Source: Tenuifilaceae bacterium (GTDB lineage Bacteria > Bacteroidota > Bacteroidia > Bacteroidales > Tenuifilaceae). Taken from it: a stretch of 39,911 nt of DNA. Location of the stretch: NCBI GenBank assembly GCA_035380045.1, contig DAOSWM010000025.1, positions 1 to 39,911 of the forward strand, in the 5' to 3' direction. A program made the position numbers and the translations under genes. Below, piece by piece: positions 1-25,931 of this stretch. Numbering within the stretch: the first letter of the stretch is position 1; every line of letters starts with the position of its first letter. The notes under the pieces were generated by a model. The model was given only the letters and a program-made list of their open reading frames with translations, searched no databases and was not told where the DNA came from.

Positions 1-161
1 ATTCCGCAACATTAAATCAGAATACTATTTTCTTGACGTTTTTAATGTTTCTTATAATATCTTAACGTTTTCTAAAAAACTTTTTTTTTACGTTTGTCGA
101 TAGGGTATTTCACTTGTCGAGGATCTATAGCATATAATCTACTTTAATAACACACGTAGCC

Positions 162-3100
162 ATGAAACGAATAAGCTTGTTTCTTATAAGCATTGTTGTT
201 TATACAAATAGCCTGGCTCAATCATATCGAATAAACCACTATAATATTAATCAGGGGTTATCGCAAAGCGTTGTTTACACAATATTTCAAGATAGCAAAG
301 GCTTTATTTGGGTTGGAACCCAGAATGGGCTTAACCGTTTTGATGGGTACTCATTCGTTAAGTTTTTGCACAATCCTTCCGACACAAACTCCTTGTCGGA
401 CAGCTGGGTATACTCAATAACGGAAGACAAAGAGGGAAATTTGTGGATTGGCACCCGTAATGGCTTGAATAAATTTAACTATAACACCAACAAGTTCTAT
501 AGGTACCAGCAAAAAACAAAGCCTGGAAATACCCTTTACAGGGACAATGTTTACGGTTGTGTTGTGAGCGATGACGGCATTGTGTACACCAACACGCCCC
601 CTCTTATTAATGCCTTTAATCCTAAAACCGAAGAGTACACGCATTACCAAAACAATCTTGGGCAAAACCCAAATGTGGAGGAACAAACGTTGCCTATAAT
701 TATCGATAGCGAGGGTATTATATGGGCTGCAACAACATTTGGGTTAACCCGATTCGACCCAGAAAGTAAAAAGTTCACCAACTTTCAGCATAACGAAAAA
801 GATAGCAAAACCATAAATAGTAACAACATCCTCACGATATACGAAGACTTAAACGGCAACATTCTGGCAGGAACCCCTGCTGGCATAAATATCTTCGACA
901 GACAAAGCGAAACCTTCAGTCACTATAAAGTTCAGGTGAATAATGCCAACGTTTGGTTTCAGTCCATTGTACAGGACCAGAAGGGAAACTACTGGGTTGG
1001 AACCCAAGGAAATGGTGTTCTAAAACTTAGAATAGATGGCAAAGAAGTTGTCCTCTTGAACAATATCGAAGCCAGCGAAACCCAAAGCCCTAACACGCTA
1101 AACCACAGTATAGTAAATACACTATTCATCGACTTCTCCCACAACCTGTGGATTGGGACACTGAACGGCCTTGATAAAACCAACCTAAAGGACCCCCGCT
1201 TTTCACTATATCGAAAATCGGAGGAGGAGAACTCCGTTGATCTGCTCGACAACGTAATTGCATCAATATACAAACACTCCGATGGAACCATTTGGGTAGG
1301 CAACTGGGGCAAAGGTTTAAACATTGTAAACAGGGAAACCGGCAAGGTAACGCATTACTCATCACAGCTTAGTAACGAACGTTACATCCCCAACGATTTC
1401 GTCCACGTTATTTTTGAATACACCCAATCCGAAATTTGGATAGGTACCCGCAGTGGAATTTTTGTTTTCGACAACCAAAGGTTTGTCCCTTTCTCTCGGT
1501 TTTATAAATCCAGCAAGCTTCCCGATCTGTCAACGTTCAGAATTTCGCATATACTAAAAGATGCAAAAAACAATGTTTGGATAGCAACACAGGGAGGATT
1601 ATTCTATGTTAACATGAACGATTTCTCCTTTGTTCACTACACACAGGATTCTCCCAAAGAGCAGAATCTTAGCGATAACCTGATTTACTCAATCACCTTC
1701 GACCACGACAGCACCCTGTGGATTGCATCAAAAAACGGGCTGAACTATTACAGCCCTCAATCAAAAAAAATCACGCACATTCTTCGCCAGGAAGGTTTAC
1801 AAAACACATTAAACGACAACTATACTGTTTCCATCTGTTACACCTCCGACTCATCACTTTTAATTGGAACTAAATCGGGTATTAATAAGCTTAACATAGA
1901 AACCAAAAAGTTCACCTACATTACTGAAGCAGATGGGCTTCCTGCCGGCGTAGTTTATGAAATAATTGAAGACGACTGGGGAAACGTATGGTTTGGTACC
2001 GGGAACGGACTTGCTGAACTCAAAAAAGGTGAAACGAAGCTAACTATTTATAGCGAGGATGACGGGCTCCAGGGTGCCGAGTTTAACTTGCATGCAGGCC
2101 ATAAGAGCAAGGATGGAGAAATTTTCTTTGGAGGAATGAACGGGTTTAACTCCTACTTCCCCAACAAATTGTCTAACAACATGTTCGTACCAAGTGTTGA
2201 GTTTACCTCCTTCCAAAAACAGAGTAGTAGCGGAACCGAAAACATTCACATTACCGAAAACAGTAGTATAATACTAAAACATAACGACTATGCATTTAAC
2301 GTTGAGTTTGCTGCCCTTGAGTTTACTAGTCCAAACAAGAACCAGTACGCATACAAGTTTACAAACTCCGACGGGGAATGGATTTACAATGGGAACAGAC
2401 GATTCCTCACTTTTTCAAACATCTCACCCGGCGTATACCAGCTTTGGGTAAAAGGAAGCAATAACGACGGGATTTGGAACGAGGAAGGAACTAGCATTAC
2501 CATTAAAGTTTTACCCCCATGGTGGAGAAGCTGGGTTGCTTACTTCGTTTACATTATTCTTATTCTTATTGGTATTATTGCTTTCATTAAGTACCGTGAA
2601 AAAAAGCTGGTTGAACAAAAAAGGGTTCTGGAACACATGGTTAAGGAGCGAACCATGGAAGTTGAAATGCAGAAAAATGAAATTATTGGGAAGAATGAGG
2701 AGCTGGAATCGCAAAACGTTGAAATTATGAGCCAGCGGGATTTGCTCTCTGAGCAAAACCAAAAAATATCAAAACAGAACAAGCAGATTAAGGACAGCAT
2801 ACAGTACGCCAGCCGAATCCAGAACGCGCTACTTCCATCTACAAATGTGCTATCGCAAAACAATATCGACCACTTTCTAATTCTCAAACCCAAGGATATT
2901 GTTAGCGGCGATTTCTACTGGTTTAAGCAGGTAAGGCACCACCTTCTCTTTGCCGTAGCCGATTGTACCGGACACGGAGTACCCGGCGCATTTATGAGCA
3001 TGCTTGGGAATGCCTTCCTTAACGAAATTGTTATGAGGAATGAGATAACCCGAGCCAATCAGGTGCTAGAAAAACTCCGTAACCTAATCATATCCTCGTT

Positions 3101-3542
3101 AATGCAATCGGGCGAAGATGCAGTATCACGTGATGGCATGGACATTGCTTTCTGTGAAATCGACCTTGCAACCCTAAAGCTACAGTACGCCGGAGCGCAC
3201 GTTAACCTAATAATTGTTAGGAACAACGAAATAATTACTGTAAAAGCCGACAGAATTCCCGTTGGTTTATACCACAAGGAGCAGCGCCCGTTTACCAACC
3301 AAGATATACAACTACAGTCAAACGACAAACTATACCTGTTTACCGATGGAATAATCGATCAGTTTGGGGGCGAACACGGAGGGAAGTTCATGCTGAAAAG
3401 ATTCCTGAGGTTGATAACCGACATCAACCAGCTACCAATGGATCAACAGCAACGACTTATCGAGGCATCAATGAACCGCTGGATGAACGATAAGTACGAA
3501 CAAATTGACGACATCACTGTTTTAGGACTTCATGTTCTGTAA
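162..3542 (+). CDS. Signal-peptide sensor protein: periplasmic two-component-regulator beta-propeller repeats plus Y_Y_Y domain, one TM helix, a cytoplasmic coiled coil and a C-terminal PP2C/SpoIIE-type Ser/Thr phosphatase domain
   Basis: The N-terminus MKRISLFLISIVVYTNSLAQ is a signal peptide. Repeated WIGT/WVGT...GLNRF/GLNKF propeller motifs span roughly aa 40-750. A hydrophobic TM segment WVAYFVYIILILIGIIAFI follows. The EE-rich coiled coil leads into the SpoIIE/PP2C motifs RIQNALLP...VSGDFYWF...AVADCTGHGVPGAFMS...DGMDIAF...LFTDGIIDQ. The ATG at 162 agrees with the ORF track. Confidence 0.75.
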   Translation: MKRISLFLISIVVYTNSLAQSYRINHYNINQGLSQSVVYTIFQDSKGFIWVGTQNGLNRFDGYSFVKFLHNPSDTNSLSDSWVYSITEDKEGNLWIGTRNGLNKFNYNTNKFYRYQQKTKPGNTLYRDNVYGCVVSDDGIVYTNTPPLINAFNPKTEEYTHYQNNLGQNPNVEEQTLPIIIDSEGIIWAATTFGLTRFDPESKKFTNFQHNEKDSKTINSNNILTIYEDLNGNILAGTPAGINIFDRQSETFSHYKVQVNNANVWFQSIVQDQKGNYWVGTQGNGVLKLRIDGKEVVLLNNIEASETQSPNTLNHSIVNTLFIDFSHNLWIGTLNGLDKTNLKDPRFSLYRKSEEENSVDLLDNVIASIYKHSDGTIWVGNWGKGLNIVNRETGKVTHYSSQLSNERYIPNDFVHVIFEYTQSEIWIGTRSGIFVFDNQRFVPFSRFYKSSKLPDLSTFRISHILKDAKNNVWIATQGGLFYVNMNDFSFVHYTQDSPKEQNLSDNLIYSITFDHDSTLWIASKNGLNYYSPQSKKITHILRQEGLQNTLNDNYTVSICYTSDSSLLIGTKSGINKLNIETKKFTYITEADGLPAGVVYEIIEDDWGNVWFGTGNGLAELKKGETKLTIYSEDDGLQGAEFNLHAGHKSKDGEIFFGGMNGFNSYFPNKLSNNMFVPSVEFTSFQKQSSSGTENIHITENSSIILKHNDYAFNVEFAALEFTSPNKNQYAYKFTNSDGEWIYNGNRRFLTFSNISPGVYQLWVKGSNNDGIWNEEGTSITIKVLPPWWRSWVAYFVYIILILIGIIAFIKYREKKLVEQKRVLEHMVKERTMEVEMQKNEIIGKNEELESQNVEIMSQRDLLSEQNQKISKQNKQIKDSIQYASRIQNALLPSTNVLSQNNIDHFLILKPKDIVSGDFYWFKQVRHHLLFAVADCTGHGVPGAFMSMLGNAFLNEIVMRNEITRANQVLEKLRNLIISSLMQSGEDAVSRDGMDIAFCEIDLATLKLQYAGAHVNLIIVRNNEIITVKADRIPVGLYHKEQRPFTNQDIQLQSNDKLYLFTDGIIDQFGGEHGGKFMLKRFLRLITDINQLPMDQQQRLIEASMNRWMNDKYEQIDDITVLGLHVL

Positions 3543-3577
3543 TAATGCTTTTCTGTTCATATTAATGCATTATTTTT

Positions 3578-4051
3578 TTGCTACTATTGCAGAATAAAAA
3601 AACAAAACAATTGAGAATACTAATCCTTTGTACCGGAAACTCATGCCGAAGCCAAATGGCCGAAGGTTACCTAAAATCATTTGACAACAGCATTGAAGTT
3701 TTTTCTGCTGGAACCAATCCTTCCAGTAATGTGCATCCGTACGCTGTTGAAGCAATGGCTGAAGTAGGCATCGACATCTCGGGAAATATACCCAAAAGCG
3801 TTGAGCAATACTTATCCCAACATTTTAATTACGTAATAACCGTTTGCGGGGGAGCAAACGAAAGCTGCCCAACCTTTACCGGTAAAGTTGCTAACCGGTG
3901 GCATATTGGCTTCGACGATCCTGCAGAAGCAATCGGTTCCGACGAAGAGGTAATGGCTGTTTTTCGCCGTGTTCGCAACGAGATTGGGGAGTCGTTTTCT
4001 GCATTCTACAAATCGCAAATTCTTGGTGAGAAGAATTGCTGCTGCGAGTAA
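3578..4051 (+). CDS. Arsenate reductase, thioredoxin-coupled ArsC type (LMW protein-tyrosine-phosphatase family)
   Basis: The CX5R P-loop LCTGNSCRSQMAEGY, the paired cysteines VCGGANESCP and the GFDDP motif match the B. subtilis-type ArsC/LMW-PTP fold. The frame has no in-frame ATG. The start is a TTG at 3578, or at 3608 giving MRILILCTGN, so the 5' end is uncertain. The C-terminus ends in an unusual CCCE. Confidence 0.6.
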   Translation: MLLLQNKKTKQLRILILCTGNSCRSQMAEGYLKSFDNSIEVFSAGTNPSSNVHPYAVEAMAEVGIDISGNIPKSVEQYLSQHFNYVITVCGGANESCPTFTGKVANRWHIGFDDPAEAIGSDEEVMAVFRRVRNEIGESFSAFYKSQILGEKNCCCE

Positions 4052-4153
4052 CTATTTATGCCCAACAAATAAACTCCCTCCGTTCCAAAATAAATAGTTT
4101 AGAAAAACTCAAAAACACCCTTCTGTAAAAAAAATAAAAAACACTTTGCAAAT

Positions 4154-4202
4154 TTAACATTGTTAATTATATTCGCGGTGTTAATTTATTGAACAGTGTT
4201 AA
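4154..4202 (+). promoter_or_regulatory. Candidate TetR operator region: perfect palindrome TTAACA-T-TGTTAA (4154-4166) plus two more TGTTAA half-sites (4179-4184, 4197-4202) just upstream of and overlapping the TetR start
   Basis: Inverted repeats read directly from the sequence. TetR-family repressors typically autoregulate through palindromic operators in their own promoter. Confidence 0.35.
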
Positions 4203-4203
4203 C

Positions 4204-4797
4204 ATGAGTAACAAAGAATTGCAAGAAAAAAGGATGAAAGGGTATTTTATCCAAGCAGCAAAAGACATCCTAAAAGGAGAAGGAATAAATAGTTTGAGCG
4301 TTAGAAACATTGCTAATCAGGCTGGATACTCCTACGCAACCCTATATAACTACTTTAAAGATGTTAACGATTTAGTCTTTCTCTGCGTAAACGATTTTCA
4401 GGAGGAGTGTAAACTTTTTGCTGAAAGCCAAACCAAGAATACTCCAGAAGGATTGGAAAAACTAAAGGCATCAGTTTTAGCATACATTGGCTATTTTGTC
4501 GAATACCCTAGTGTTTTCGATGTGTTTTACCTAGCAAAAGTGGGTGACTTTGGGAACAAGCAGGCAACAATTAATGCAATAAGTAACTCCCTCGAGAATG
4601 TTTGTATTTCAGACTGGGAATACTGTATTACCCAAAAATTAGTTCCAACTGAAAAAGCTAACATCATTAAATCTCAACTAAAGAATACTGTAGTTGGACT
4701 TCTATTGCTTTATATAAATCGGAGGATCCCAAATACATACTCTGATTTTATTCATCAGGCTGAAACCATGGTGAATCAACTTTTTGAATTCAATTAG
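4204..4797 (+). CDS. TetR/AcrR family transcriptional regulator
   Basis: The N-terminal HTH SVRNIANQAGYSYATLYNYFKDVNDLVF is typical of TetR. The ORF track starts at a TTG at 4189. The first in-frame ATG is at 4204 (MSNKELQ...) and is preferred here. Confidence 0.75.
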   Translation: MSNKELQEKRMKGYFIQAAKDILKGEGINSLSVRNIANQAGYSYATLYNYFKDVNDLVFLCVNDFQEECKLFAESQTKNTPEGLEKLKASVLAYIGYFVEYPSVFDVFYLAKVGDFGNKQATINAISNSLENVCISDWEYCITQKLVPTEKANIIKSQLKNTVVGLLLLYINRRIPNTYSDFIHQAETMVNQLFEFN

Positions 4798-5913: not shown

Positions 5914-6510
5914 ATGATACTACTCGATTTTAGCACTTGGTGGAACGATCTCTCTACCTTTGCATCCATTTACTGGCTTATTACACTTCCTGCTTCCGCA
6001 GTTTTTGTAATTCAGCTTATTCTTACGCTCATAGGTGCCGATGCCGACCACGACGGGCTCGATGCACTGGGCGATGCTGACGCCGGAGTTGACACCGACC
6101 ACGGAATTGGTTTCCAATTCATAAGCCTTAAGAACTTCATCGCATTCTTCACCGTTTTTGGCTGGGTGGGGCTAGCCTGCATTTACAGTGGTTTTGGGCC
6201 ATGGATCACAGTTCTTATCTCCACTGTTGCCGGGCTGATTATGATGGTTATTATGGCATCAATCTACTATTTCTTAGGCAAGCTCACTGAGTCGGGCAAT
6301 GTAAATATGGAAAGTGCCATTGGTAAAACCGCTACGGTTTACCTGTTCATCCCACCCAACAGGCAAGCTTCAGGGAAAGTCCAAATTCAGCTACAGGGCT
6401 ATCGCACCCTTGATGCAATGACTGATGAAGACGAAAAAATCCCAACCGGCTCCATCGTTCAGGTGGTTGATGTGATTAACGACGAAATCCTCCTTGTAAA
6501 AAAAGCGTAG
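5914..6510 (+). CDS. NfeD-like membrane protein (YqiJ-like, partner of flotillin)
   Basis: N-terminal TM helices plus a C-terminal soluble OB-fold-like domain. It lies immediately upstream of an SPFH/flotillin gene, the classic yqiJ-yqiK arrangement. Confidence 0.55.
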   Translation: MILLDFSTWWNDLSTFASIYWLITLPASAVFVIQLILTLIGADADHDGLDALGDADAGVDTDHGIGFQFISLKNFIAFFTVFGWVGLACIYSGFGPWITVLISTVAGLIMMVIMASIYYFLGKLTESGNVNMESAIGKTATVYLFIPPNRQASGKVQIQLQGYRTLDAMTDEDEKIPTGSIVQVVDVINDEILLVKKA

Positions 6511-11216: not shown

Positions 11217-11987
11217 ATGCGAGGTAGTCTAGTATTCATAATTACTTTATTTTTCATTTCTTTTTCTTTGTTTTCAAGTGAAACCGAAAAGAAATCGCCC
11301 CTAACCGAGCCATCAGAGAAAATACACATGGCATCGGATTCGCTGAAGTTCGATTTCTCCGCCGATTTCCGCTCGCGCCATATTTGGCGCGGAAATCTTA
11401 CCTGTAGCGCATGGAGCGTTCAGCCTACCATGAACCTTACCTCCTCAAACTTTCTGGTTGGCATCTGGGGTGCTTACACGGTTGACAACAGCTACACGGA
11501 GTTCGACCTTTACGCTTCGTACACCTACAAACGTTTCACCATTGCCATACTCGACTATTTTTGTCCCAGCGAAACGGTTAAATTCAACCACCTATTCAAC
11601 TATAGCAATAAAACAACAAAACACACGCTCGATGCGGTACTCAGCTTCAACGGAACCCAAAGATTCCCGCTGAGCATATCGGCCTCAACGCTGTTCTTTG
11701 GCGACGATAAAAACCCCAGTAATGGTGAAAACTACTTTTCCACCTATATCGAAGCCAGCTATAAATGGGAAGTAAGCGAGCAGCTTAAATCAGAATTTCA
11801 CGTTGGCCTCACTCCCTTCGAAGGTTACTACTCAACAGGGGCAAACGTGGTTAGCTGCGGCTTGTCGATAACTCAAAACTTGCAAATTTCATCAAGTTTC
11901 AAACTTCCGATAAATGGCAAACTCATTATCAATCCTAACACAGAGAATGTGTTCTTTGTGTTAGGGTTTACATTGGGATACTTCTAG
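11217..11987 (+). CDS. Hypothetical secreted protein, probable outer-membrane beta-barrel
   Basis: A signal peptide, alternating hydrophobic beta-strand pattern and a C-terminal aromatic residue (…GFTLGYF) typical of OM barrels. No family was recognised. Confidence 0.4.
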   Translation: MRGSLVFIITLFFISFSLFSSETEKKSPLTEPSEKIHMASDSLKFDFSADFRSRHIWRGNLTCSAWSVQPTMNLTSSNFLVGIWGAYTVDNSYTEFDLYASYTYKRFTIAILDYFCPSETVKFNHLFNYSNKTTKHTLDAVLSFNGTQRFPLSISASTLFFGDDKNPSNGENYFSTYIEASYKWEVSEQLKSEFHVGLTPFEGYYSTGANVVSCGLSITQNLQISSSFKLPINGKLIINPNTENVFFVLGFTLGYF

Positions 11988-12263: not shown

Positions 12264-13103
12264 ATGATAATTACAGATCAAGATCTTCAATATTTTGTAA
12301 GTGCTCTTAAGAACTCCTCTAAGTACGACTTTAGCGAATACTCGGACAAATCGCTCAAGCGTAGGCTTCAGAAGGTGATGGAAGATTTTAATTTAGATAT
12401 CACAGGGCTTATCTCAGCCATACGTAGCGATGCCGATTTTTCAGAAAAAATTGTAAAAGAAATTACCGTAAATACTACTGAACTTTTTCGGGATCCACAG
12501 GTTTGGCACACCCTTCGGTCTCGCATTCTTCCTCGTTTTAAAAACAACAAAACCATTAACATATGGCATGCCGGGTGTTCAACCGGCCAGGAGGTCTATT
12601 CAATGATGATACTCCTAAATGAGATGGGAATGTTTGATAAAGCAAAGATTTTTGCCTCAGATCTAAATACCGATGTCCTCGATGCAGCCAAGAAGGGGCT
12701 GTATAAATACCGTTTCAATATTGGGTATCTTGATAATTTCGACAAGGTTATTAAACAAAACCCATTAAACTACGAAGAGTTTAATGACGTTCCATACGAA
12801 ACTTATTTTGATATTGACAAGGTTAGGGACTCCATTTCCATGAAAAAGTTTTTAACTGAAAAACCCATATTCAGGAAGCATGACTTGGTGAAGGACGGGA
12901 ATCTCTTTTTTGCCAAATTTGACCTTATTCTATGTAGAAACGTAATAATTTATTTTAACTACTCGTTGCAGAACAAAGTATTCGAACTCTTCCATTCAAA
13001 CCTATACAATAAGGGCGTTTTGTTACTAGGTATGCACGAAACAATACTGGGGCCATGGGCCGCTAAGTTCGACAAGATGGGGCAAGCTTACATTAAAAAA
13101 TAA
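12264..13103 (+). CDS. cheR: CheR-type protein-glutamate O-methyltransferase (standalone)
   Basis: It has the CheR N-terminal helical domain and the SAM-binding signature: FFRDPQVW...INIWHAGCSTGQEVYSMMILL...IFASDLN...LILCRNVIIYF. Confidence 0.8.
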   Translation: MIITDQDLQYFVSALKNSSKYDFSEYSDKSLKRRLQKVMEDFNLDITGLISAIRSDADFSEKIVKEITVNTTELFRDPQVWHTLRSRILPRFKNNKTINIWHAGCSTGQEVYSMMILLNEMGMFDKAKIFASDLNTDVLDAAKKGLYKYRFNIGYLDNFDKVIKQNPLNYEEFNDVPYETYFDIDKVRDSISMKKFLTEKPIFRKHDLVKDGNLFFAKFDLILCRNVIIYFNYSLQNKVFELFHSNLYNKGVLLLGMHETILGPWAAKFDKMGQAYIKK

Positions 13104-13129
13104 TTTTGCAGTTATAATCAGTTTTAGGC

Positions 13130-15502
13130 ATGAAGTTTTTAAAAAATATGAGCATCAAACAAAGAATTCAACTTTTGGTTGTCACCCTAATGGTTGTACT
13201 CTTTTCTGCTTCTGCCATTATAGCATACTACATGCTCCGCAAACAATCACAAATATCCACTGATAAGCAAACGATGCTATACCTCGGTCAGCTGGAAAAA
13301 ATTATAACCCTCATTAACGAAAACACTGAACCTGGCTTCGATCACAACGACTACATCCAAATTAAACCATACTTCACCCAAAACCCCTACTTTAAAACCG
13401 ATTACCCTTTTCTAATCGACATTTCTGGCAACTATCTGATTCATCTATACAAAGAAGGTCAGAAATTCCCGCGTGAGCAACTAAAAGAAATGCTCACTAA
13501 CCCTGAAAAAAAAGGTGTAATTATATACGAAGACTATAAGAACGCCCAGCAACAGATCGTTTCACTTTATTTCAAAAAAATTGAACCCTACAACTCTTTC
13601 GTTGCGATTCCCATAAATCATGATGAGGCGTTCTCCCACCTGCAAAACAGCATACTAATTCTTTTAGCCATTGCGATAGCATGCACCCTCATTTCCTTTT
13701 TTATTATCAGGAGAACCTTAAACCCACTGATAAAGGCAATTAACACAGTAAGTAAAAGTCTTAACCTCCTGTCAACAGGACAGGTAGCTCCAAAGATTAA
13801 TTATTTACAAAATGACGAGGTTGGACAAATTGTTCTACCGCTCAATTCTCTTATTGATGGGGTTCAACGAACAACGCTCTTTGCAAAAAGAATAGGTAAA
13901 AGTGAACTCGATGTTGAATTCATCACCATGGGGGAAAATGATGAGCTTGGTAATTCGTTGCTTGAGCTGAAAAACAGCATGCTAAAAACTGCAAAGGAAA
14001 ACGAACAACGAAAACTTCAGGATGAGCAACGGAACTGGAGTACTTCTGGAATTGCAAAGTTTGGTGATATCCTGCGTCAAAACAACAACAACCTTCAGTT
14101 TCTCTCCGACAGTGTTATTCAAAATTTAGTTAACTATCTCAACGCAAACCAGGGAGGCCTATTTATTCTTAACGAATCCGATAACACCCCATACCTTGAA
14201 CTCATTTCGGCTTTCGCATTCAACCGTAAAAAGGTTAAAACAAAAACTATCCATGTAGGAGAGGGACTCGTAGGGAATTGTGCAATAGAAAAACAAACTA
14301 TTTACCTAAAAGAAATTCCCGAAGATTACATTGAGATTACGTCTGGGCTTGGTGATGCTCCTCCAAGTTCGCTTCTCATTGTACCCCTCAAGCTTGAAGA
14401 TAAAATTTTTGGAGTAGTTGAACTTGCTTCATTTAATGAGTTTCAACCTCATGAAATTGAATTCGTTGAAATAATAGGAGAAAGCATCGCCTCTACCCTC
14501 TCCGCTGTGAAAAATAACATCCGAACCAATGAGCTCCTAGAACAATCGCAGCAACAACGTGAAGAAATGGCTGCTCAGGAGGAGGAAATGCGGCAGAACA
14601 TGGAGGAAATGCAAGCCACGCAGGAAGAGATGGCACGCAAAACCCTCGAGATGGAAGGTATGACATCTGCCATTAATGAATCGTTAGCTTTTGCGGAGCT
14701 AACCGAGGAGGGAAACTTCATAATGGCGAATCCAAACTTTTTAAGCCTAACAGGTTACGGAAAAACAGAAATTGAGAATAAACGTATCAACGACTTCATT
14801 CACTCCGACGAGGCTGCGATCTTCAACAAAAACTGGAAGAACATTGTGATAGGCGAACCCTTTAAGGGAACGCTCAAGTGGGTGAACCATAGCGAAGAGG
14901 AATTGTATGTGCTTGCAAGCATAAGTCCTGCCTTCGATGAAAGCGGACGTATTTTTAAAATATTCTTCCTGGGTCAGGATGTTAGCGAATCAAAAAAAAT
15001 TGAGTTGAAAGCCCAAGCGCAAGCCGAAGAGATTGAAAAGAGTTTAATGGAACTCGAGATGGAACAGGAACTATCCAAGCAACGCGAAGAGGAAATGGAT
15101 GCTTTGCTTCAAGCCCTCGACACCACCTGCCTTGTAACACAATTTGAACCCGATGGTCGCATTACATACATCAACAATAAAAACGTTGAAACACTTGGCG
15201 ATCCAAAAAGCAAAATTGAAGGGAAACTCCATTCCGAACTTGATTTTCAAGCTAAAAATAATCCCCAAGAGTACAAACAGTTCTGGGAAGACTTGCTTCT
15301 GGGCATTCAAAAAACCAGAGAATTTTCACTCAACGTTAGCGGAAAAAATATCTGGATTTCAGAACACTACACCCCTATTAAAAATACAGAAGGGAAAGTT
15401 ATTAAAATTATTAACATCGGAATCGACATATCTGCCTCGAAAGACACGGAAAAAAAATTGAGGGAAACTGTTAACTCCTTAAAAAAGGACAAGGAAAAGT
15501 AA
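13130..15502 (+). CDS. Membrane sensor protein: TM-periplasmic region-TM-HAMP-GAF-coiled coil-PAS-coiled coil-PAS, with no recognisable output domain
   Basis: A TM helix, a ~150-aa extracytoplasmic region and a second TM helix (ILILLAIAIACTLISFFII) are followed by a HAMP-like segment. The GAF motif is ITSGLGDAPPSSLLIVPLKLEDKIFGVVELASF. The EE-heptad helix EEMAAQEEEMRQNMEEMQATQEEM resembles MCP methylation helices. Two PAS-like blocks follow. No kinase, cyclase or phosphatase domain is present. Confidence 0.7.
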   Translation: MKFLKNMSIKQRIQLLVVTLMVVLFSASAIIAYYMLRKQSQISTDKQTMLYLGQLEKIITLINENTEPGFDHNDYIQIKPYFTQNPYFKTDYPFLIDISGNYLIHLYKEGQKFPREQLKEMLTNPEKKGVIIYEDYKNAQQQIVSLYFKKIEPYNSFVAIPINHDEAFSHLQNSILILLAIAIACTLISFFIIRRTLNPLIKAINTVSKSLNLLSTGQVAPKINYLQNDEVGQIVLPLNSLIDGVQRTTLFAKRIGKSELDVEFITMGENDELGNSLLELKNSMLKTAKENEQRKLQDEQRNWSTSGIAKFGDILRQNNNNLQFLSDSVIQNLVNYLNANQGGLFILNESDNTPYLELISAFAFNRKKVKTKTIHVGEGLVGNCAIEKQTIYLKEIPEDYIEITSGLGDAPPSSLLIVPLKLEDKIFGVVELASFNEFQPHEIEFVEIIGESIASTLSAVKNNIRTNELLEQSQQQREEMAAQEEEMRQNMEEMQATQEEMARKTLEMEGMTSAINESLAFAELTEEGNFIMANPNFLSLTGYGKTEIENKRINDFIHSDEAAIFNKNWKNIVIGEPFKGTLKWVNHSEEELYVLASISPAFDESGRIFKIFFLGQDVSESKKIELKAQAQAEEIEKSLMELEMEQELSKQREEEMDALLQALDTTCLVTQFEPDGRITYINNKNVETLGDPKSKIEGKLHSELDFQAKNNPQEYKQFWEDLLLGIQKTREFSLNVSGKNIWISEHYTPIKNTEGKVIKIINIGIDISASKDTEKKLRETVNSLKKDKEK

Positions 15503-15529
15503 GGTTAAGTTGCTGACTAAAACGAAACG

Positions 15530-16360
15530 ATGGTACGATACGAAATAGGCATAGTAGAAACACGAAACGTAATCAAAACTTTACTTGAAACCTTTGATTA
15601 CGACTTTAGCGATTATGCGCTTACCTCATTTAAGCGAAGACTTGAAGATATTATTATTAACAACGGACTGAAGGATGCCGATGGATTAATTTACAGGCTA
15701 AAAAACAACAAGGACTACTTCGAATATTTCCTCCGTGAAATAACTCCTGAAACAACTGAAATGTTTCGCGATCCTTCACTATGGCGAACACTCCGCGATG
15801 ATATTATTCCTGATATCACCAGAACATCAGGAAAATTAAAATTCTGGGTTGGCAATTTCGATTCGGGGGAAGATTTATATTCGCTCTGTATCACCCTCAA
15901 CGAATTGGGCATCCTAAACGAATCAACTATATACTGTTCAATCATCAGCAATGTAATTGAACATAAAATAAAAAGCGGTAAAATCGACTTTAAGCAGGTT
16001 GAAACCAATGAAGCGAACTATACACGCTGTAACGGCGACAAAAACTACTCCGATTACGTTACCGTTAACAATGGAATGGCTACAATTGATACCAAACTGA
16101 TTGAAAACGTTACCTTCCTGAAGCAAAACACCCTATTCAACAACTGTCCTAACAGCGTTAAACTTCTACTTTTCAGGAACCAGATTATTTACTACAACCA
16201 ATCGTTACAGGATAAAATAATAAATAACATCTCAAATAGTTTGGTCGCAGGAGGGTACCTGGCCATTGGCGCAAAAGAAACCTTGGATAATACAAATACA
16301 AGCAATAAATTTACCGTGATTAACGATGCCGAAAAAGTTTACAAAAAGAAAACAGGTTAG
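15530..16360 (+). CDS. Divergent CheR-like methyltransferase paralog (SAM-binding glycine/cysteine motif degenerated)
   Basis: The CheR N-terminal motif MFRDPSLWRTLRDDIIPDI is present. The canonical G-C-S-T-G-E-E-x-Y-S is replaced by GNFDSGEDLYS. The C-terminal LLLFRNQIIYYN corresponds to the CheR LIFCRNVLIYF. It is therefore CheR-fold but possibly catalytically altered. Confidence 0.65.
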   Translation: MVRYEIGIVETRNVIKTLLETFDYDFSDYALTSFKRRLEDIIINNGLKDADGLIYRLKNNKDYFEYFLREITPETTEMFRDPSLWRTLRDDIIPDITRTSGKLKFWVGNFDSGEDLYSLCITLNELGILNESTIYCSIISNVIEHKIKSGKIDFKQVETNEANYTRCNGDKNYSDYVTVNNGMATIDTKLIENVTFLKQNTLFNNCPNSVKLLLFRNQIIYYNQSLQDKIINNISNSLVAGGYLAIGAKETLDNTNTSNKFTVINDAEKVYKKKTG

Positions 16361-16366
16361 TAAATT

Positions 16367-16927
16367 ATGTATAAAGCAGTTATAATAGGAGGTTCTGCAG
16401 GAAGTTTTCAGGTGATAACTAAAATTCTAAGTTCATTACCACAAAACTTTCATTTACCTGTGCTTCTTAGCCTTCACAGGCTAAAACATGTTCGAAGCGG
16501 ATTCGTTGAAGCCCTTTCCATCAAGGCCTCAATACCTGTTATCGAACCATATGATAAGGATCAGATTAAACCCGGCAAAGCATACCTAGCCCCAGCCAAC
16601 TACCATATGTTTGTTGAATTGGGAAATAAAATTGCTCTTTCAACGGAAGAACCCGTAAATCACTCGCGTCCATCCATCGACCTTTCTTTCACTACTGCAG
16701 CCCAAGTGTACCGCGATAAACTAATCGGCATAATACTCTCTGGCGCCAACAAGGATGGTGCTTACGGCTTAAAAAAAATTAAGGATTATGGTGGGATTGC
16801 CATTGTTCAAGATCCTGAGGAATGCCAAGTTAAAACAATGACCGAGTCATCGCTTCGACTCACAAAAGTCGACCATATTTATAGAACAAATGAGATTATT
16901 AGATTTTTACAAAATCTTAAACCCTAA
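16367..16927 (+). CDS. cheB: CheB-type protein-glutamate methylesterase, catalytic domain only (no receiver domain)
   Basis: The catalytic triad context is conserved: GGSAGS (Ser), NHSRPSID (His) and SGANKDGA (Asp). At 186 aa it lacks the N-terminal REC domain. Confidence 0.8.
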   Translation: MYKAVIIGGSAGSFQVITKILSSLPQNFHLPVLLSLHRLKHVRSGFVEALSIKASIPVIEPYDKDQIKPGKAYLAPANYHMFVELGNKIALSTEEPVNHSRPSIDLSFTTAAQVYRDKLIGIILSGANKDGAYGLKKIKDYGGIAIVQDPEECQVKTMTESSLRLTKVDHIYRTNEIIRFLQNLKP

Positions 16928-16939
16928 CCCCGATGCCCA

Positions 16940-17749
16940 ATGAAAAAACTCTCATTCAAATCGAGATTTAGCCACGGCATCCTGCTGTTAATACTTCTTT
17001 CCGGAGCCATAACTTCGGCATTAATAATGCATAACATCATCCTACAGCTAGGCGGCAGAATATCTCTTATCCCCATCATTCTTATACTTTTTGCAATTGG
17101 GGCTGGAGTTATGCTATACCAGAAAGCAGCATCAAATTACCGGCAGTTTTACAAAAAAACAGAAGAGCTAGAACATCTCAAAAAAGCCGTTGAACAAGCA
17201 CGTAAAGCAGAGGAAGAGAAAGAAGTAGCAAAAAAAAGTAAGGAAAACCAAGAGCAAACAGTTGTCGACTTCGACGCTGAAGTACAATCGGTTATCCCCC
17301 TTGAAACCTTTGAAAACAACGAACAGTACATAGAGAAACTGCTAGCCAACGTCGCTAATAAGTTTGAAATCGTTCAGGGAATTGTTTTTCTCTACAACCC
17401 ACAGAAGAAGAAATTCTGCTTCTCTGGAGGTTACGCATACTTCTCAGAAGAGATTCCAAGAGAGTTTTCTGAAGGTGAAACACTTTCAGGACAGGTTGCA
17501 AAAAACAAGATTCTACTTAACCTCGACAATGTTCCCGAAGGTTACATTACAATCCTTTCGGGTCTTGGGAAAGGAACCCCAAAAAACCTAATTATCGCAC
17601 CTGTCCTCACTGCTCAAAGCGAATGTATTGGCGTAATTGAGCTGGCTTCATTTAAGCCCTTTACAAAGGATTGTGAAAAAGTATTCGAACTACTGGGCAA
17701 GTCCGTGGGCGTACAAATTGAAAATAAAACCCTAAGCAATGAGGAGTAG
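16940..17749 (+). CDS. Small membrane protein with two TM helices, a coiled coil and a C-terminal GAF domain
   Basis: The TM helices are ILLLILLSGAITSALIM and LIPIILILFAIGAGVMLY. The coiled coil is EELEHLKKAVEQARKAEEEKE. The GAF motif ITILSGLGKGTPKNLIIAPVLTAQSECIGVIELASF is paralogous to the GAF domains of the two flanking large sensors. Confidence 0.6.
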   Translation: MKKLSFKSRFSHGILLLILLSGAITSALIMHNIILQLGGRISLIPIILILFAIGAGVMLYQKAASNYRQFYKKTEELEHLKKAVEQARKAEEEKEVAKKSKENQEQTVVDFDAEVQSVIPLETFENNEQYIEKLLANVANKFEIVQGIVFLYNPQKKKFCFSGGYAYFSEEIPREFSEGETLSGQVAKNKILLNLDNVPEGYITILSGLGKGTPKNLIIAPVLTAQSECIGVIELASFKPFTKDCEKVFELLGKSVGVQIENKTLSNEE

Positions 17750-17752
17750 TTT

Positions 17753-20365
17753 ATGGTAACTCATAGCAAAATATCTTCAACCACCCAAGCTAGGCTCATC
17801 TCCCATAAAGTGGTGATGGCAGGTGTAATAGGATTACTTTTTATGGTTCTTGCCTGGATTTTAGAACTCATCGGACAAAATATTCCCTTCTCAATAAGCA
17901 GTATTGGAGCAATACATTCTACAAACCCCACTTTATGGATAATTGACATACTCCCATTACTTTTTGCATATGTCACCTGGGTTCAGCTCTCAAAGCATCA
18001 GGAAAAAGTTGTTTTCCTTGAGGAAGAAATCCAGCAACGTGACGACGACATAAATAAAAACGCTCTTTTTGCAAAAAAGATTGGAGAGGGCGACTACAAT
18101 GCCAACCTTGAGATTAGCGATGAAGAGGATATTCTCGGGAAATCGCTCCTGGTTATGCGCGACAACCTCCTAGAGAATAACCAGAAGGAATCGGAGCAGA
18201 ATTGGATTTCAACAGGCAAGGATGAAGTTTCGCACATACTCCGATTGCATAACAACATCGATGAGCTAACCTACGAGGTTCTGGTTAAACTCATTAACTA
18301 CATAAACGTTATTCAAGGTGCCCTCTACATATACGATGAGGATAAAAAAATACTGAAAAACCTAGCCACATTCGCATACTCACGAAAAAAATTCATCAAT
18401 CAGGAGTTTAAAATCGGACAAGGTTTAATTGGTCAATGTGCCTACGAACGTGATTTTATCTACAGAACCGAAATCCCCGATAACTACATTTCAATAACAT
18501 CAGGAATACTCGGTGACAAGAAACCCAAGAGCCTCCTTATAGTACCACTTATAACCGACGAAAAACTCCAGGGCGTAATCGAGTTTGCTTCGCTTGACGA
18601 TAACATCCCCGAGCTAACAATCCGTTTCCTAAAAGAAATGGGCGAAATTATTGCCCGTACCATCTTTAACCTAAGGGTGAACCAAAAAACGGAAAGATTA
18701 CTGCAGGAAGCTCAACAGATGACTCAAGAACTTAAAGAGAACGAAGAGGAGCTTCGGCAGAATGCTGAGGAGATGAGAGCCACACACGAAGAGCTCGAGA
18801 AATCGAACGCCAAACTTGAGCAAAAAATTAAGGAGGTAGAAAACGCTCAAAAACGATTACACTCACTCCTTGAAAACGCATCAGAAATAATATCGATTTA
18901 CAGCAGCAGCCTTAAACTCACCTACATAAGCCCTTCGGTAACAAAAATTTTAGGCTACACACCCCAGGAAATGATGAGCGGAAAGGATATCGATAGGCTT
19001 ACCCGCAAGGGCGAGCAAGATTTGAGCGACATGTTCCACAAGCTACTCGACTCTCCCCGTATGCCCATCACCATCCAGTACACTTTCATGAAAAAGGATG
19101 GAGAAAAGATATTCCTTGAGGTTACCGGACGTAACTTACTCGACGACACTGCAATTAATGGCATCATTCTTAACTCCCAAGATATTACTGAGCGCAAAAG
19201 AGCCGAGAAGGAGGAACGCATGCGGAGCAAAATGCAGGCCCTATCAGAGAACTCACCCGACATGATTATTCGCCTCAACACCGCAGGACAATTCTTCTAC
19301 GCCAACCCCATGGTGGAGCAGTACCTTGGCATTCCGGTGAAAGACTTAATAAACCAAACCCTTAACTCCATTGAAATAAACGAAACGCTTCTCTCCTTCT
19401 TCAAAGAATCAATTAAAACCATAAAAACCACCAAACAGAAAGTTGAAGAAGACCTTACTTTCGATGCAAAAATTGGTGAAACCATAATGCATATCTCAGC
19501 AATTCCGGAATTTAACGAGAATGAACTCGAAACAATCCTTTTCGTTAGCCACGATATTACCGAAGCGAAACGCATTGAACTCGAAATCCAGGATAAAAAC
19601 CGAAAGATTACCGAAAGTATCAACTACGCACAGCGTATTCAAACCTCAATACTTCCAAACAACAAAATTATTCGACAGTATCTGCCAAAATCATTCATTT
19701 ACTATAAACCACGCGACGTGGTTAGCGGCGACTTCCCCTGGTTTTTTATAAAAGAAGATTACATCTACATTGCTGCTGTCGACTGTACTGGGCATGGAGT
19801 TCCTGGAGCTCTGCTCTCATTCATTGGTTACTTTACACTCAACAATGTTGTTGACCATGATGTTACCTATAGCGCAGGAAAAATTCTTGACGTACTTCAT
19901 TTTGGAGTACGCAAAACCCTTAAACAGGACAGACCCGATGCTGATGCTCGTGATGGGATGGACATTGCACTTTGTAAAATAAATCTTAAAAAGAAAGAAC
20001 TCCAATACTCAGGTGCTCACAGGCCCCTGTTCCTTTTACGAAACAAAGAGCTACTTGAATACAAAGGCGACCGAAAAGCCATTGGGGGCATCCCTCATCC
20101 AAAGAAAGAGGAGTCTGACTTTACAAACTACATCATCGAGCTAAAACAGGGAGATAAGATATTCTTCTTCTCCGATGGCATGCCCGACCAAGTTGGTGGT
20201 TCAGACATCAGAAAGTACGGACCAGCAAGAATCCGGGAGATTATCACAGGCAATCCAGACATGACAATGCCCCAGTACAACGAAATTTTCTCAAAAGATT
20301 TTGAAGAGTATAAGGGTGAAAATAAGCAAATTGACGACGTTTTACTAATTGGTATAGAATTCTAA
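17753..20365 (+). CDS. Membrane sensor phosphatase: TM-HAMP-GAF-EE-heptad coiled coil-PAS-PAS-PP2C/SpoIIE Ser/Thr phosphatase (SiaA/RsbU-like)
   Basis: Two TM helices are followed by a HAMP-like linker. The GAF motif is ITSGILGDKKPKSLLIVPLITDEKLQGVIEFASL. The EE-heptad helix is QELKENEEELRQNAEEMRATHEELEKS. Two PAS blocks follow. The PP2C motifs are RIQTSILP...VSGDFPWF...AAVDCTGHGVPGALLS...DGMDIAL...FFSDGMPDQ. The start overlaps the stop of the upstream gene (ATGGTAAC). Confidence 0.8.
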   Translation: MVTHSKISSTTQARLISHKVVMAGVIGLLFMVLAWILELIGQNIPFSISSIGAIHSTNPTLWIIDILPLLFAYVTWVQLSKHQEKVVFLEEEIQQRDDDINKNALFAKKIGEGDYNANLEISDEEDILGKSLLVMRDNLLENNQKESEQNWISTGKDEVSHILRLHNNIDELTYEVLVKLINYINVIQGALYIYDEDKKILKNLATFAYSRKKFINQEFKIGQGLIGQCAYERDFIYRTEIPDNYISITSGILGDKKPKSLLIVPLITDEKLQGVIEFASLDDNIPELTIRFLKEMGEIIARTIFNLRVNQKTERLLQEAQQMTQELKENEEELRQNAEEMRATHEELEKSNAKLEQKIKEVENAQKRLHSLLENASEIISIYSSSLKLTYISPSVTKILGYTPQEMMSGKDIDRLTRKGEQDLSDMFHKLLDSPRMPITIQYTFMKKDGEKIFLEVTGRNLLDDTAINGIILNSQDITERKRAEKEERMRSKMQALSENSPDMIIRLNTAGQFFYANPMVEQYLGIPVKDLINQTLNSIEINETLLSFFKESIKTIKTTKQKVEEDLTFDAKIGETIMHISAIPEFNENELETILFVSHDITEAKRIELEIQDKNRKITESINYAQRIQTSILPNNKIIRQYLPKSFIYYKPRDVVSGDFPWFFIKEDYIYIAAVDCTGHGVPGALLSFIGYFTLNNVVDHDVTYSAGKILDVLHFGVRKTLKQDRPDADARDGMDIALCKINLKKKELQYSGAHRPLFLLRNKELLEYKGDRKAIGGIPHPKKEESDFTNYIIELKQGDKIFFFSDGMPDQVGGSDIRKYGPARIREIITGNPDMTMPQYNEIFSKDFEEYKGENKQIDDVLLIGIEF

Positions 20366-20403
20366 ATTGATTATTATCGGTAAATTATTTAATTTTACGG
20401 GCT

Positions 20404-20979
20404 ATGGACAAAAAGAATGTTAAAGGGTTTCTTGAGTTTGTATACGACTTCTACAAGTCGATGAAAGCTCATGAAATCACCCTTGTGTACGAGGGTGAAA
20501 TAACCCACCAAATCACCAAGGCCTTTACCTCCCTCACTGAGTCGAACATGGCGAAGGAGGAAGAGTCTAACTCTGTGCAGAAGAAAGTCTTTCATGTTAT
20601 GGTAGAGTGCCTGCAAAACATTAGCAAGCACGCCGACAGCTTCGGCTCCGATGACTTTCTGTTCGCCGGACGAGGAATCTTCATGGTTAGTAAAGGTGAA
20701 ATTGAGTACCATGTTACTACCGGGAACGTGATTGAGAACTCAAAGATTGATGAACTCACAAAAATTCTCGACCACATCAACACCCTGGATAAGGACGGTT
20801 TGAAAGAACTGTACAAAACACAGATGCGAGAAGGACGTCTTTCGGAGAAAGGTGGAGCAGGACTTGGATTTATTGATATTGCTAGGAAAACTGGCCGTAA
20901 ACTCGAGTACCACTTCCTCCCCATCGACGAAGAAACCCACTTCTTTATTTTAACCTCAACCATATCCAGAAACGAGTAA
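20404..20979 (+). CDS. GHKL-type Ser/Thr protein kinase, SiaB/RsbW/SpoIIAB-like partner-switch kinase
   Basis: The N-box-like VECLQNISKHA and the G2-box EKGGAGLGFIDIARKTG of HATPase_c anti-sigma-factor-type kinases are present. The 191-aa size and position directly after a PP2C phosphatase gene fit this role. Confidence 0.6.
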   Translation: MDKKNVKGFLEFVYDFYKSMKAHEITLVYEGEITHQITKAFTSLTESNMAKEEESNSVQKKVFHVMVECLQNISKHADSFGSDDFLFAGRGIFMVSKGEIEYHVTTGNVIENSKIDELTKILDHINTLDKDGLKELYKTQMREGRLSEKGGAGLGFIDIARKTGRKLEYHFLPIDEETHFFILTSTISRNE

Positions 20980-20994
20980 GAAAATACAAGAGCT

Positions 20995-21378
20995 ATGGAA
21001 ACCATAAAGATCATGGGTACCGACGATACCCCAACTGTTATTCTCGATGCTGATAACGATATCTTTGAGATATCAGGCCGCTCTCTCCCCGAGGATGTAA
21101 CCGCATTCTACGAGCCCATACTTAACTGGCTCGACGATTATGCCAACTCGCCTAATGCGAAAACCGTGTTTATATTTAAACTCGTTTACTTTAACACAGC
21201 GAGCTCCAAGCTTCTACTTGACATTCTTATGAAGCTTGAGCAAATGCATGAAGATGGCAAGGAGGTATTAATCCGATGGTTCTACCCTGAAGATGATGAA
21301 GATATGCAGGAAGCTGGTGAGGAGTATGCTGATATTGTTGATATCCCATTTGAGCAGGTAAGCTACACGCTAACCTAA
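20995..21378 (+). CDS. DUF1987/SiaC-like small regulatory phosphoprotein, the probable kinase/phosphatase substrate
   Basis: It is 127 aa. The pattern DDTPTVILDADNDIFEISGRSLPEDVTAFYEPILNWLDDY ... VYFNTASSKLL ... WFYPEDDEDMQEAGEEY matches the SiaC-family layout as remembered, including the Ser/Thr-containing YFNT(A/S)SS segment. The family assignment is from recall, not a search. Confidence 0.55.
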   Translation: METIKIMGTDDTPTVILDADNDIFEISGRSLPEDVTAFYEPILNWLDDYANSPNAKTVFIFKLVYFNTASSKLLLDILMKLEQMHEDGKEVLIRWFYPEDDEDMQEAGEEYADIVDIPFEQVSYTLT

Positions 21379-21419
21379 TTTAGCCTATAGCTATCCGTTT
21401 GCTTTAACAAACCTTAGCA

Positions 21420-25474: not shown

Positions 25475-25493
25475 TCAGAGAAATTTAAGGGCC

Positions 25494-25931
25494 ATGAAAA
25501 AAACATATTTTATTTTACTACTAACGTTCATTCTCTCCGGAGCCTATTCGATTGCTTTCGCTCAATCTGAAGACGATTTAGTTGAGATTTGTGGAATGAT
25601 AGCACAGGATGCAACCTACCTTAAAGACTTTAAGGTAAGGCTCGATGCGGGGAATCCTCCTCCAGTTCAGCGTTTTTCAGTAATTCTTAAGAAAGGAATT
25701 AAGTACAGGTTCTCGGTTTGCAATTCCAAGGACTATGAAGGGAAAGTTGTTCTTCAGCTACTTGATAACAACCGCCTCCTAGCCACCACTCACGTAGTGG
25801 CAAGCGGACAGGACTACCCATCAATAGACTATGTGTGCACAAAGACAGGAGCATACCACCTCTTCTTCAACTTTAAGGACGGAAAACCTGGGTTGGCTGT
25901 TGGCTTACTTTCGCTGGTTGAAACAATATAG
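25494..25931 (+). CDS. Hypothetical small secreted protein
   Basis: Signal peptide MKKTYFILLLTFILSGAYSIAFAQ. It is 145 aa with no recognisable family. Confidence 0.4.
   Translation: MKKTYFILLLTFILSGAYSIAFAQSEDDLVEICGMIAQDATYLKDFKVRLDAGNPPPVQRFSVILKKGIKYRFSVCNSKDYEGKVVLQLLDNNRLLATTHVVASGQDYPSIDYVCTKTGAYHLFFNFKDGKPGLAVGLLSLVETI

Follow-up and report, generated by a model that had tools for sequence, protein, structure and literature searches.

An open reading frame (ORF) on the plus strand at positions 162-3542 of a 39,911-nucleotide stretch of DNA from a Tenuifilaceae bacterium (GenBank assembly GCA_035380045.1, contig DAOSWM010000025.1; the whole stretch is referred to here as the window) joins a periplasmic sensor of the type found in hybrid two-component systems (HTCS) to a SiaA-like PP2C phosphatase domain in one membrane protein, and this combination is real. 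The ORF runs uninterrupted for 1,126 codons from an ATG start and encodes an intact protein of 1,126 amino acids (aa), referred to as the sensor phosphatase. From the N terminus to the C terminus, the protein consists of a signal peptide, two seven-bladed Reg_prop propellers, a Y_Y_Y Ig-like domain, one transmembrane (TM) helix, a helical linker of ~80 aa, and a SpoIIE/PP2C domain. The architecture is common in Bacteroidota, where it is already annotated automatically and is uncharacterized. Based on its sequence and on gene arrangements in related genomes, our best reading, to which we give a probability of roughly 0.55, is that the protein would be a ligand-gated transmembrane Ser/Thr phosphatase of a SiaC-type partner switch.

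A periplasmic HTCS-type sensor joined to a PP2C output

An initial annotation of the gene, made from the DNA alone, described an HTCS-type propeller/Y_Y_Y sensor with a PP2C output in place of a histidine kinase/AraC output. Pfam searches, alignments to BT3049 and BT4663, a structure model, and Foldseek all agree with this description. All three families are found by Pfam above their cutoffs: Reg_prop (E value of 1.5e-40; score of 132 bits, cutoff of 20.4), Y_Y_Y at aa 721-784 (E value of 1.4e-15, above the curated cutoff), and SpoIIE at aa 926-1125 (E value of 4e-23; score of 82.8 bits, cutoff of 25). The periplasmic domain of BT3049 (3v9f) can be aligned end to end with aa 19-789 (E value of 2.1e-71), and that of BT4663 (4a2l) aligns to the sensor in four pieces (E value of 3.8e-91) at an identity of only ~25%; homology to the solved periplasmic domains begins at aa 19. 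In an AlphaFold2 monomer model built from an alignment of 61 homologues (mean predicted local distance difference test score [pLDDT] of 86.8), 56 beta-strands across aa 24-665 make up 14 four-stranded blades, that is, two seven-bladed propellers, followed by an Ig-like sandwich at aa 679-783. Foldseek comparison of the sensor with the PDB returned BT3049 and BT4663 with target-normalized TM-scores (TMt) of 0.82 and 0.78, respectively. The full-length homology to HTCS sensor structures rules out PQQ, WD40, or another propeller family as the origin of the sensor, a possibility raised together with the initial annotation; the propellers are of the HTCS Reg_prop type.

The sensor phosphatase has the whole periplasmic module, followed by a single TM helix, in common with Bacteroides HTCS proteins (BT4663, BT3049, and BT4673; PDB 4A2L/4A2M, 3V9F, and 3OTT) but differs from them in its PP2C output, in its low identity (~25%), and in the lack of a polysaccharide utilization locus (PUL) context. 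HisKA and HATPase_c have no Pfam match in the protein at an E value of <0.1, receiver and AraC-type HTH_18 domains are absent from the Pfam matches, and the PP2C domain forms the C-terminal end of the protein (aa 1126). With the kinase, the receiver, the AraC domain, and the PUL context each checked and found absent, the sensor phosphatase is not an HTCS. The closest sensors with other outputs are those of plain histidine kinases (43 to 59% identity) without AraC outputs, and no AraC-type HTCS is present among the best 120 relatives. Judged by these comparisons, the term "HTCS-style" is right for the fold of the sensor, and the nearest sensors belong to ordinary kinases.

Within the SpoIIE match, the motif DCTGHGVPGAFMS is found at aa 934-946. 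The PP2C domain of SiaA (6k4e) is matched by aa 855-1123 (E value of 1.1e-38; 31% identity), and the modeled domain, which has a PP2C alpha/beta fold at aa 895-1125, superposes on 6k4e with a TMt of 0.90 and a root mean square deviation of 2.5 Å. The active-site residues of SiaA are D457, D474, C475, G477, D534, D600, G601, D604, and D653 (PMC7647112). All nine are kept in the sensor phosphatase, as the metal ligands D917, D934, D1062, and D1116 and the auxiliary residues C935, G937, D994, G1063, and D1066, and these counterparts are invariant or nearly so in the 61 homologues. The GDF, DxTGHG, TDG, and DD motifs are intact, and the loss of metal-binding Asp residues, which had been named as a potential flaw of the phosphatase assignment, did not materialize. 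By its Pfam score, its catalytic residues, and its fold, the domain is a member of the SpoIIE-type PP2C family, and its catalytic site is complete.

Among NCBIfam models, the best family is SiaA (NF038263), with a local match of 204.6 bits over model positions 379-656, and the next PP2C-type model, RssB, scores 38 bits. The only solved PP2C structures matched at an E value of <1e-3 are likewise SiaA (1e-38) and RssB (3e-6). Compared with SiaA of the Pseudomonas aeruginosa SiaABCD system (6K4E), the active-site residues are identical, including an unusual Cys after the second Asp, and both proteins are membrane anchored. However, the N terminus of SiaA is of the TM/HAMP type, whereas the sensor phosphatase carries a periplasmic propeller sensor of ~770 aa and is not adjacent to siaB or siaC. 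No SiaD-type diguanylate cyclase was found in the window, and the score of 204.6 bits does not reach the SiaA equivalog cutoff of 700 bits. As judged from its score, its N terminus, and the lack of adjacent siaB/siaC genes, the sensor phosphatase is not a SiaA equivalog.

Sensor and output are connected through the membrane by a segment at aa 789-811, the only strongly hydrophobic one, which contains the top Kyte-Doolittle 19-residue window (aa 791-809; score of 2.78) and opens a continuous model helix at aa 791-833. A second linker helix follows at aa 847-890, and the distal linker is alignable with that of SiaA. Classical Reg_prop/Y_Y_Y histidine kinases of Bacteroidota (e.g., P0025 and P0076-P0120) are 43 to 59% identical to the sensor phosphatase over the sensor and TM helix but have a HisKA/HATPase output where the sensor phosphatase has PP2C. 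For one of these kinases, P0025, the identity is 59% over a stretch that starts at residue 1 and takes in the sensor, the TM helix, and the first ~40 linker residues. Because this identity runs to ~aa 853, where P0025 departs into HisKA/HATPase, the output swap between the two proteins looks as if it falls inside the linker, and the divergence point fits a model of linker-mediated, exchangeable outputs (PMC12143880). The P0025 locus (L084:10001-13249) has secretin, T2SSE, and prepilin-peptidase genes as well as two MCPs and CheW as neighbors.

The start of the gene at ATG 162 is backed by homologues that cover 98 to 100% of the protein, signal peptide included, and solved structures also favor the longer ORF over a shorter gene call. 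In that call, a JGI entry of identical sequence (P0001; 1,049 aa), translation starts 77 codons downstream of ATG 162 (leaving out window positions 162-392), and the signal peptide and first propeller strands are lost. Given the homologue coverage, we take ATG 162 to be the correct start and the JGI call to begin too late.

Distribution of the architecture in Bacteroidota

The initial annotation implied that the architecture is rare, but it is widespread. In a search of 5.8 billion proteins, ~75 of the best 120 clusters contained Reg_prop, Y_Y_Y, and SpoIIE at full length, with identities from 65% down to 38%. Among the names given to them at source are [quoted passage not shown] "SpoIIE family protein phosphatase," and [quoted passage not shown] and named relatives include Tenuifilaceae, Salinivirgaceae, and Bacteroidales metagenome-assembled genomes. 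We also scanned genomes at one genome per GTDB species and kept 80 loci among the matches listed; sensor and PP2C domain lie in a single ORF in at least 54 of these loci. Record titles of the fusion loci name Bacteroidales, Flavobacteriales, Sphingobacteriaceae/Sphingobacterium, Chitinophaga, Flammeovirga, and others. For several Ignavibacteria among the 80 loci, the match ends before the PP2C domain or the fusion is unconfirmed.

Variants of the architecture include proteins with an extra GAF domain (P0033 and P0036, among others). Local expansions were seen at L073:3461-15002, with three tandem Reg_prop-PP2C paralogues, and at L016:9941-21771, where four PP2C-only genes stand in tandem behind a Reg_prop-PP2C gene. 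The same sensor type also occurs with outputs other than PP2C, namely, in the classical histidine kinases described above and in an adenylate cyclase-HD protein. In the latter (L083:11037-14951; 1,304 aa), Reg_prop/Y_Y_Y is fused to an adenylate/guanylate cyclase and an HD domain, and the gene lies ~1.2 kb upstream of a SiaB-PP2C-SiaC trio (16159-19065).

In the literature, we found no paper joining Reg_prop or Y_Y_Y with PP2C or SpoIIE, and the Reg_prop-PP2C combination is unmentioned in a 2025 survey of bacterial PP2C architectures. The architecture fits current ideas on modular sensor-output exchange and would not surprise a specialist.

A proposed SiaC-type partner switch and its alternatives

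Four distant genomes (L018, L020, L042, and L068) each carry a Reg_prop-PP2C gene and, after it in the same orientation, genes for a lipoprotein, a SiaB-family kinase, and a SiaC-family protein, with gaps of 3 to 102 nt where measured (L020 and L068). At two further loci, a SiaB-family gene lies 1.6 kb upstream (L064) or a SiaC gene lies 6 kb upstream (L022). A Pfam census of 124 small ORFs within 6 kb of 52 family members recovered DUF6272/SiaB five times and SiaC four times. Of the 25 families listed in the census, no others belong to partner switches, and STAS and RsbW-type (HATPase_c_2) families are absent from the list. Because SiaB/SiaC operons occur in four genomes and STAS partners were not found near family members, a SiaC-type role appears to be the likeliest for the sensor phosphatase. 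A SiaC-family switch would likewise be preferred to a STAS/sigma factor switch since the PP2C domain is SiaA-like, the window holds a SiaABC-like module, and the four operons exist. The lipoprotein of these operons (270 to 286 aa) has no Pfam family and a lipobox-like sequence (...SCKK) and could be a co-sensor for the propeller domain; no homologue of the 285-aa operon lipoprotein is encoded in the window, whose 269-aa GAF protein is unrelated to it.

The SiaB/SiaC genes of the window lie ~17 kb from the sensor phosphatase gene, together with a phosphatase gene of their own (Table 1). The encoded SiaC keeps the phospho-acceptor T68 (YFNT68ASSK) in an alignment to P. aeruginosa SiaC (6kko/6k4f), and the PP2C domains of the two window phosphatases are 38% identical (E value of 1e-58). 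As the initial annotation had stated, the sensor phosphatase is one of two membrane-sensor phosphatases in the window, and neither its own kinase nor its substrate is encoded next to it. The other phosphatase has two N-terminal hydrophobic helices. The strongly conserved cluster around SiaC (12264-24509) encodes CheR, a GAF-PAS protein, a second CheR, CheB, the 269-aa GAF protein, PP2C, SiaB, SiaC, and a 1,029-aa fusion of TerB with an ABC (G-type) transporter. Of 80 metagenome loci related to the window SiaC, most of the longer ones have TerB-ABC directly after the SiaC gene and CheR/CheB/GAF/PP2C genes before it. Because no diguanylate cyclase (SiaD) is present, the output of SiaC in this cluster may be the TerB-ABC transporter.

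Under a SiaC-type partner switch, the sensor phosphatase would act as a homodimer, for which the homodimeric SiaA PP2C domain (PMC7647112) and the homodimeric periplasmic domain of BT4663 could serve as precedents. Ligand binding in the periplasm would alter how far apart, or at what angle, the membrane-proximal Y_Y_Y domains and the TM helices lie, in line with the scissor-blade model of Lowe et al. 2012 for BT4663 (cited in PMC8534201). Crossing helical linkers would pass this movement to the PP2C dimer interface and switch helices, and the movement of the switch would set Mn2+/Mg2+ binding and hence phosphatase activity, as in RsbU and SpoIIE; a dimeric helical linker acting on a PP2C switch element is the control proposed for RsbU-type phosphatases (PMC12143880). 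The substrate would be a phospho-Thr/Ser on a SiaC-family (DUF1987) partner-switch protein that is phosphorylated by a SiaB-family kinase, and the only such pair in view is the one encoded at 20404-21378. If this pair is the target, two phosphatases would act on one switch, with a periplasmic ligand sensed through the propellers as the input of the sensor phosphatase and cytoplasmic or membrane cues sensed through HAMP-like, GAF, and PAS domains as the input of the other (17753-20365). In Bacillus subtilis, RsbU and RsbP both act on RsbV. Because the window SiaC already has a dedicated phosphatase, a propeller input to it would be cross-talk of this RsbU/RsbP-on-RsbV kind, which is plausible. 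More specifically, the propeller phosphatase could be a second, periplasm-facing input to the CheR/CheB-GAF-SiaA-SiaB-SiaC-TerB/ABC module, such that an extracellular ligand (possibly a glycan or envelope component) sets SiaC phosphorylation and thus TerB-ABC post-translationally; in this specific form, we regard the proposal as doubtful.

The comparison with RsbU and RsbP of the sigma-B pathway extends to membership in the same superfamily, a like proposed linker control, and two gated phosphatases on one phosphoprotein. However, RsbU and RsbP are soluble enzymes under the control of RsbT or PAS/RsbQ, their substrate is a STAS protein, and neither gave a sequence match at an E value of <1e-3 among solved structures.

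Several observations weigh against a SiaC-type role. The sensor phosphatase gene is an orphan, with neither a kinase for the SiaB role nor a substrate gene adjacent, and its 64 to 65% identical orthologues (L003 and L085) adjoin unrelated housekeeping genes (OPT transporter, M20 peptidase, TatD, and tautomerase). The conserved CheR/CheB-GAF-PP2C-SiaB-SiaC-TerB/ABC cluster around the window SiaC has a GAF/PAS phosphatase of its own, and a reverse scan from SiaC found a Reg_prop protein in none of the 80 metagenome loci. Convergence on the SiaC-like protein ~17 kb away, as suggested in the initial annotation, is unproven, although the SiaA-like PP2C domain, the 38% identity between the two window phosphatases, and the four operons make it plausible. 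The four operonic loci share a class I aldolase and accD downstream, and because of this synteny, they may reflect a single evolutionary event or an ancestral arrangement. In a neighbor-joining tree of PP2C domains, which has no outgroup or support values and is used only as a caution, the four operonic members make up a Reg_prop clade, to which the sensor phosphatase is not sister; GAF/PAS-type SiaA-like proteins, including the second phosphatase of the window, form a separate clade. With regard to the mechanism, the homodimer is putative, the monomer model has low confidence at aa 829-861, and the heptad signal of the linker is moderate (0.5 to 0.63 of a/d positions are hydrophobic), which leaves a continuous coiled coil as a putative feature. 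Lastly, another SiaB/SiaC pair or a STAS substrate may be encoded elsewhere in the genome.

A STAS substrate would make the sensor phosphatase an RsbU-like enzyme that acts on an anti-sigma-factor antagonist encoded elsewhere and controls an alternative sigma factor instead of a SiaC-type switch. Many homologues bear the JGI automatic name "serine phosphatase RsbU (regulator of sigma subunit)," the substrate of the orphan gene is not in its neighborhood, and SiaC and STAS proteins are structurally similar (PMC7647112), so cross-family specificity is possible. However, STAS and HATPase_c_2 are both missing from the 25 families listed in the census of small ORFs, in which SiaB and SiaC are present, and no STAS protein or RsbW-type kinase gene was found among window ORFs of at least 120 aa. 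None of SpoIIE, RsbX, and Rv1364c, which we take to be the solved PP2C structures acting on STAS substrates, is matched at an E value of <1e-3, compared to 1e-38 for SiaA, and we consider a sigma factor role unlikely. The relatedness to RssB-type PP2C-like domains, which is detectable, would allow for a noncatalytic adaptor or pseudophosphatase in which the PP2C fold serves for protein binding only. This is highly improbable, since the Asp residues that coordinate metal, like the DxTGHG, TDG, and DD motifs, are preserved without change in the 61 homologues and the RssB matches are far weaker than those to SiaA (38 versus 205 bits; 3e-6 versus 1e-38).

The remaining alternative concerns the ligand and the response. 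The initial annotation had raised a different signaling logic for polysaccharide sensing, in which a glycan sensor would give a PUL-like polysaccharide response via phosphatase signaling and not via HTCS transcription control. The periplasmic module does have the same fold as the heparin sensor BT4663, and propeller relatives such as PorZ bind glycans (anionic lipopolysaccharide), according to PMC8545088. However, the identity to BT4663 is only ~25%, and the closest sensors reside in plain histidine kinases, not AraC-type HTCS, one of them beside pilus/secretin and MCP/CheW genes. SusC/SusD and glycoside hydrolases were found neither in the 40-kb window nor in the upstream ~2.8 kb of available contig; a search for susC/susD outside the window had been suggested with the initial annotation. 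Only 3 Plug-domain (TonB-receptor) proteins are among the 43 large ORFs in ~1 Mb around 55 family members, with no PUL enrichment, and the neighbors of these homologues are mostly housekeeping genes. Because of these results, the polysaccharide reading is unsupported beyond the fold of the sensor; nothing indicates that the ligand is a dietary or host glycan, and we judge a PUL-like response to be quite unlikely.

Gene neighborhoods and implications

On its own contig, the sensor phosphatase gene has a TPR-HisKA-HATPase kinase as its upstream neighbor (L001:849-2801), and an ArsC-type low-molecular-weight phosphatase-fold protein, a TetR regulator, and OsmC are encoded downstream. At loci in other genomes, the neighbors that recur (enolase, UbiD, dnaE, and thioredoxin, for example) are housekeeping genes and differ by lineage. 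We rejected a conserved neighborhood as a clue to function since, SiaB/SiaC operons excepted, the neighbors of L001, L003, L085, and most of the 55 loci are unrelated. One upstream-neighbor family recurs on the same strand at nine loci (L035, L039, L040, L044, L052, L055, L061, L063, and L072), and its scanned member (L035) is a TPR and caspase-like (Peptidase_C14) protein.

The ArsC-type gene (LMWPc; similar to thioredoxin-coupled arsenate reductases of the pI258 family) lies at 3578-4051, 35 nt downstream on the same strand, and its NCBIfam score of 125.9 bits is below the cutoff of 174.3. As it is not next to the orthologues, it was rejected as a functional partner and is probably unrelated. 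A promoter and terminator scan of positions 1-4300 found no plus-strand terminator after the sensor phosphatase gene; its hits were at chance level, and it does not cover Bacteroidota promoters. Elsewhere in the window, four ORFs of 145 to 303 aa without a Pfam match lie within 24563-25931, 11217-11987, and 5914-6510. Those at 24563-25474, 25494-25931, and 11217-11987 also have no NCBIfam match, and two of them lie directly downstream of the TerB-ABC gene.

Table 1. Features of the sensor phosphatase, the SiaABC-like genes of the window, and operonic loci in other genomes
Feature	Position	Strand	Basis or remark
Sensor phosphatase gene, complete	162..3542	+	Stop codon 3540-3542; ORF, domain matches, and full-length homologues
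Signal peptide or membrane anchor, aa 1-20, MKRISLFLISIVVYTNSLAQ	162..221	+	Hydrophobic helix aa 2-15 in model; cleavage putative
Two tandem seven-bladed Reg_prop propellers, aa 24-665	231..2156	+	Pfam, model strands, BT4663/BT3049 matches
Y_Y_Y Ig-like beta-sandwich, membrane proximal, aa 679-784	2196..2513	+	Pfam and model strands 679-783
Single TM helix, aa 789-811, WRSWVAYFVYIILILIGIIAFIK	2526..2594	+	Kyte-Doolittle and model
Cytoplasmic E/K/Q-rich helical linker, aa 812-894, ending in conserved IQYASRIQNALLP segment	2595..2843	+	Model helices
PPM/PP2C (SpoIIE-type) domain, aa 895-1126	2844..3539	+	Pfam, NCBIfam, 6k4e, residue mapping
Other PP2C protein, 2TM-(HAMP-like)-GAF-PAS-PAS-PP2C, SiaA-like, dedicated to SiaB/SiaC pair; possible co-input	17753..20365	+	Two N-terminal hydrophobic helices
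SiaB-family protein kinase (DUF6272), candidate opposing kinase; putative link to sensor phosphatase	20404..20979	+	NF038262, 178 bits against 85; PF19788, 2.2e-44
SiaC-family phosphoprotein, candidate substrate; putative link to sensor phosphatase	20995..21378	+	PF09345, 143 bits
Reg_prop-PP2C/lipoprotein/SiaB/SiaC locus	L018:9971-15424		
Reg_prop-PP2C/lipoprotein/SiaB/SiaC locus	L020:9959-15190		
Reg_prop-PP2C/lipoprotein/SiaB/SiaC locus	L042:9941-15028		
Reg_prop-PP2C/lipoprotein/SiaB/SiaC locus	L068:4378-9478		

The known inputs of partner-switch PP2C phosphatases are HAMP, PAS, GAF, receiver, and RsbU-N domains, and Reg_prop/Y_Y_Y modules are known mainly from HTCS glycan regulators; the sensor phosphatase gene shows these outputs and inputs combined. 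By itself, the finding reveals neither a new mechanism nor a new way of sensing polysaccharides. The Reg_prop-PP2C/lipoprotein/SiaB/SiaC operons and the kinase/phosphatase pair with one sensor offer the most useful leads. P0025 and the sensor phosphatase form a natural chimera pair for asking whether a kinase and a PPM phosphatase can each be driven by the same transmembrane signal via a helical linker. If the sensor phosphatase does serve as a second input to the SiaC module of the window, it would be a PUL-independent and transcription-independent readout of an HTCS-type sensor, as well as a natural test bed for scissor-type transmembrane signals that gate PP2C dimers. Some family members are joined to SiaB/SiaC genes, and they extend threonine-phosphorylation switching of the SiaABC type, the studies of which have so far been in Pseudomonas.

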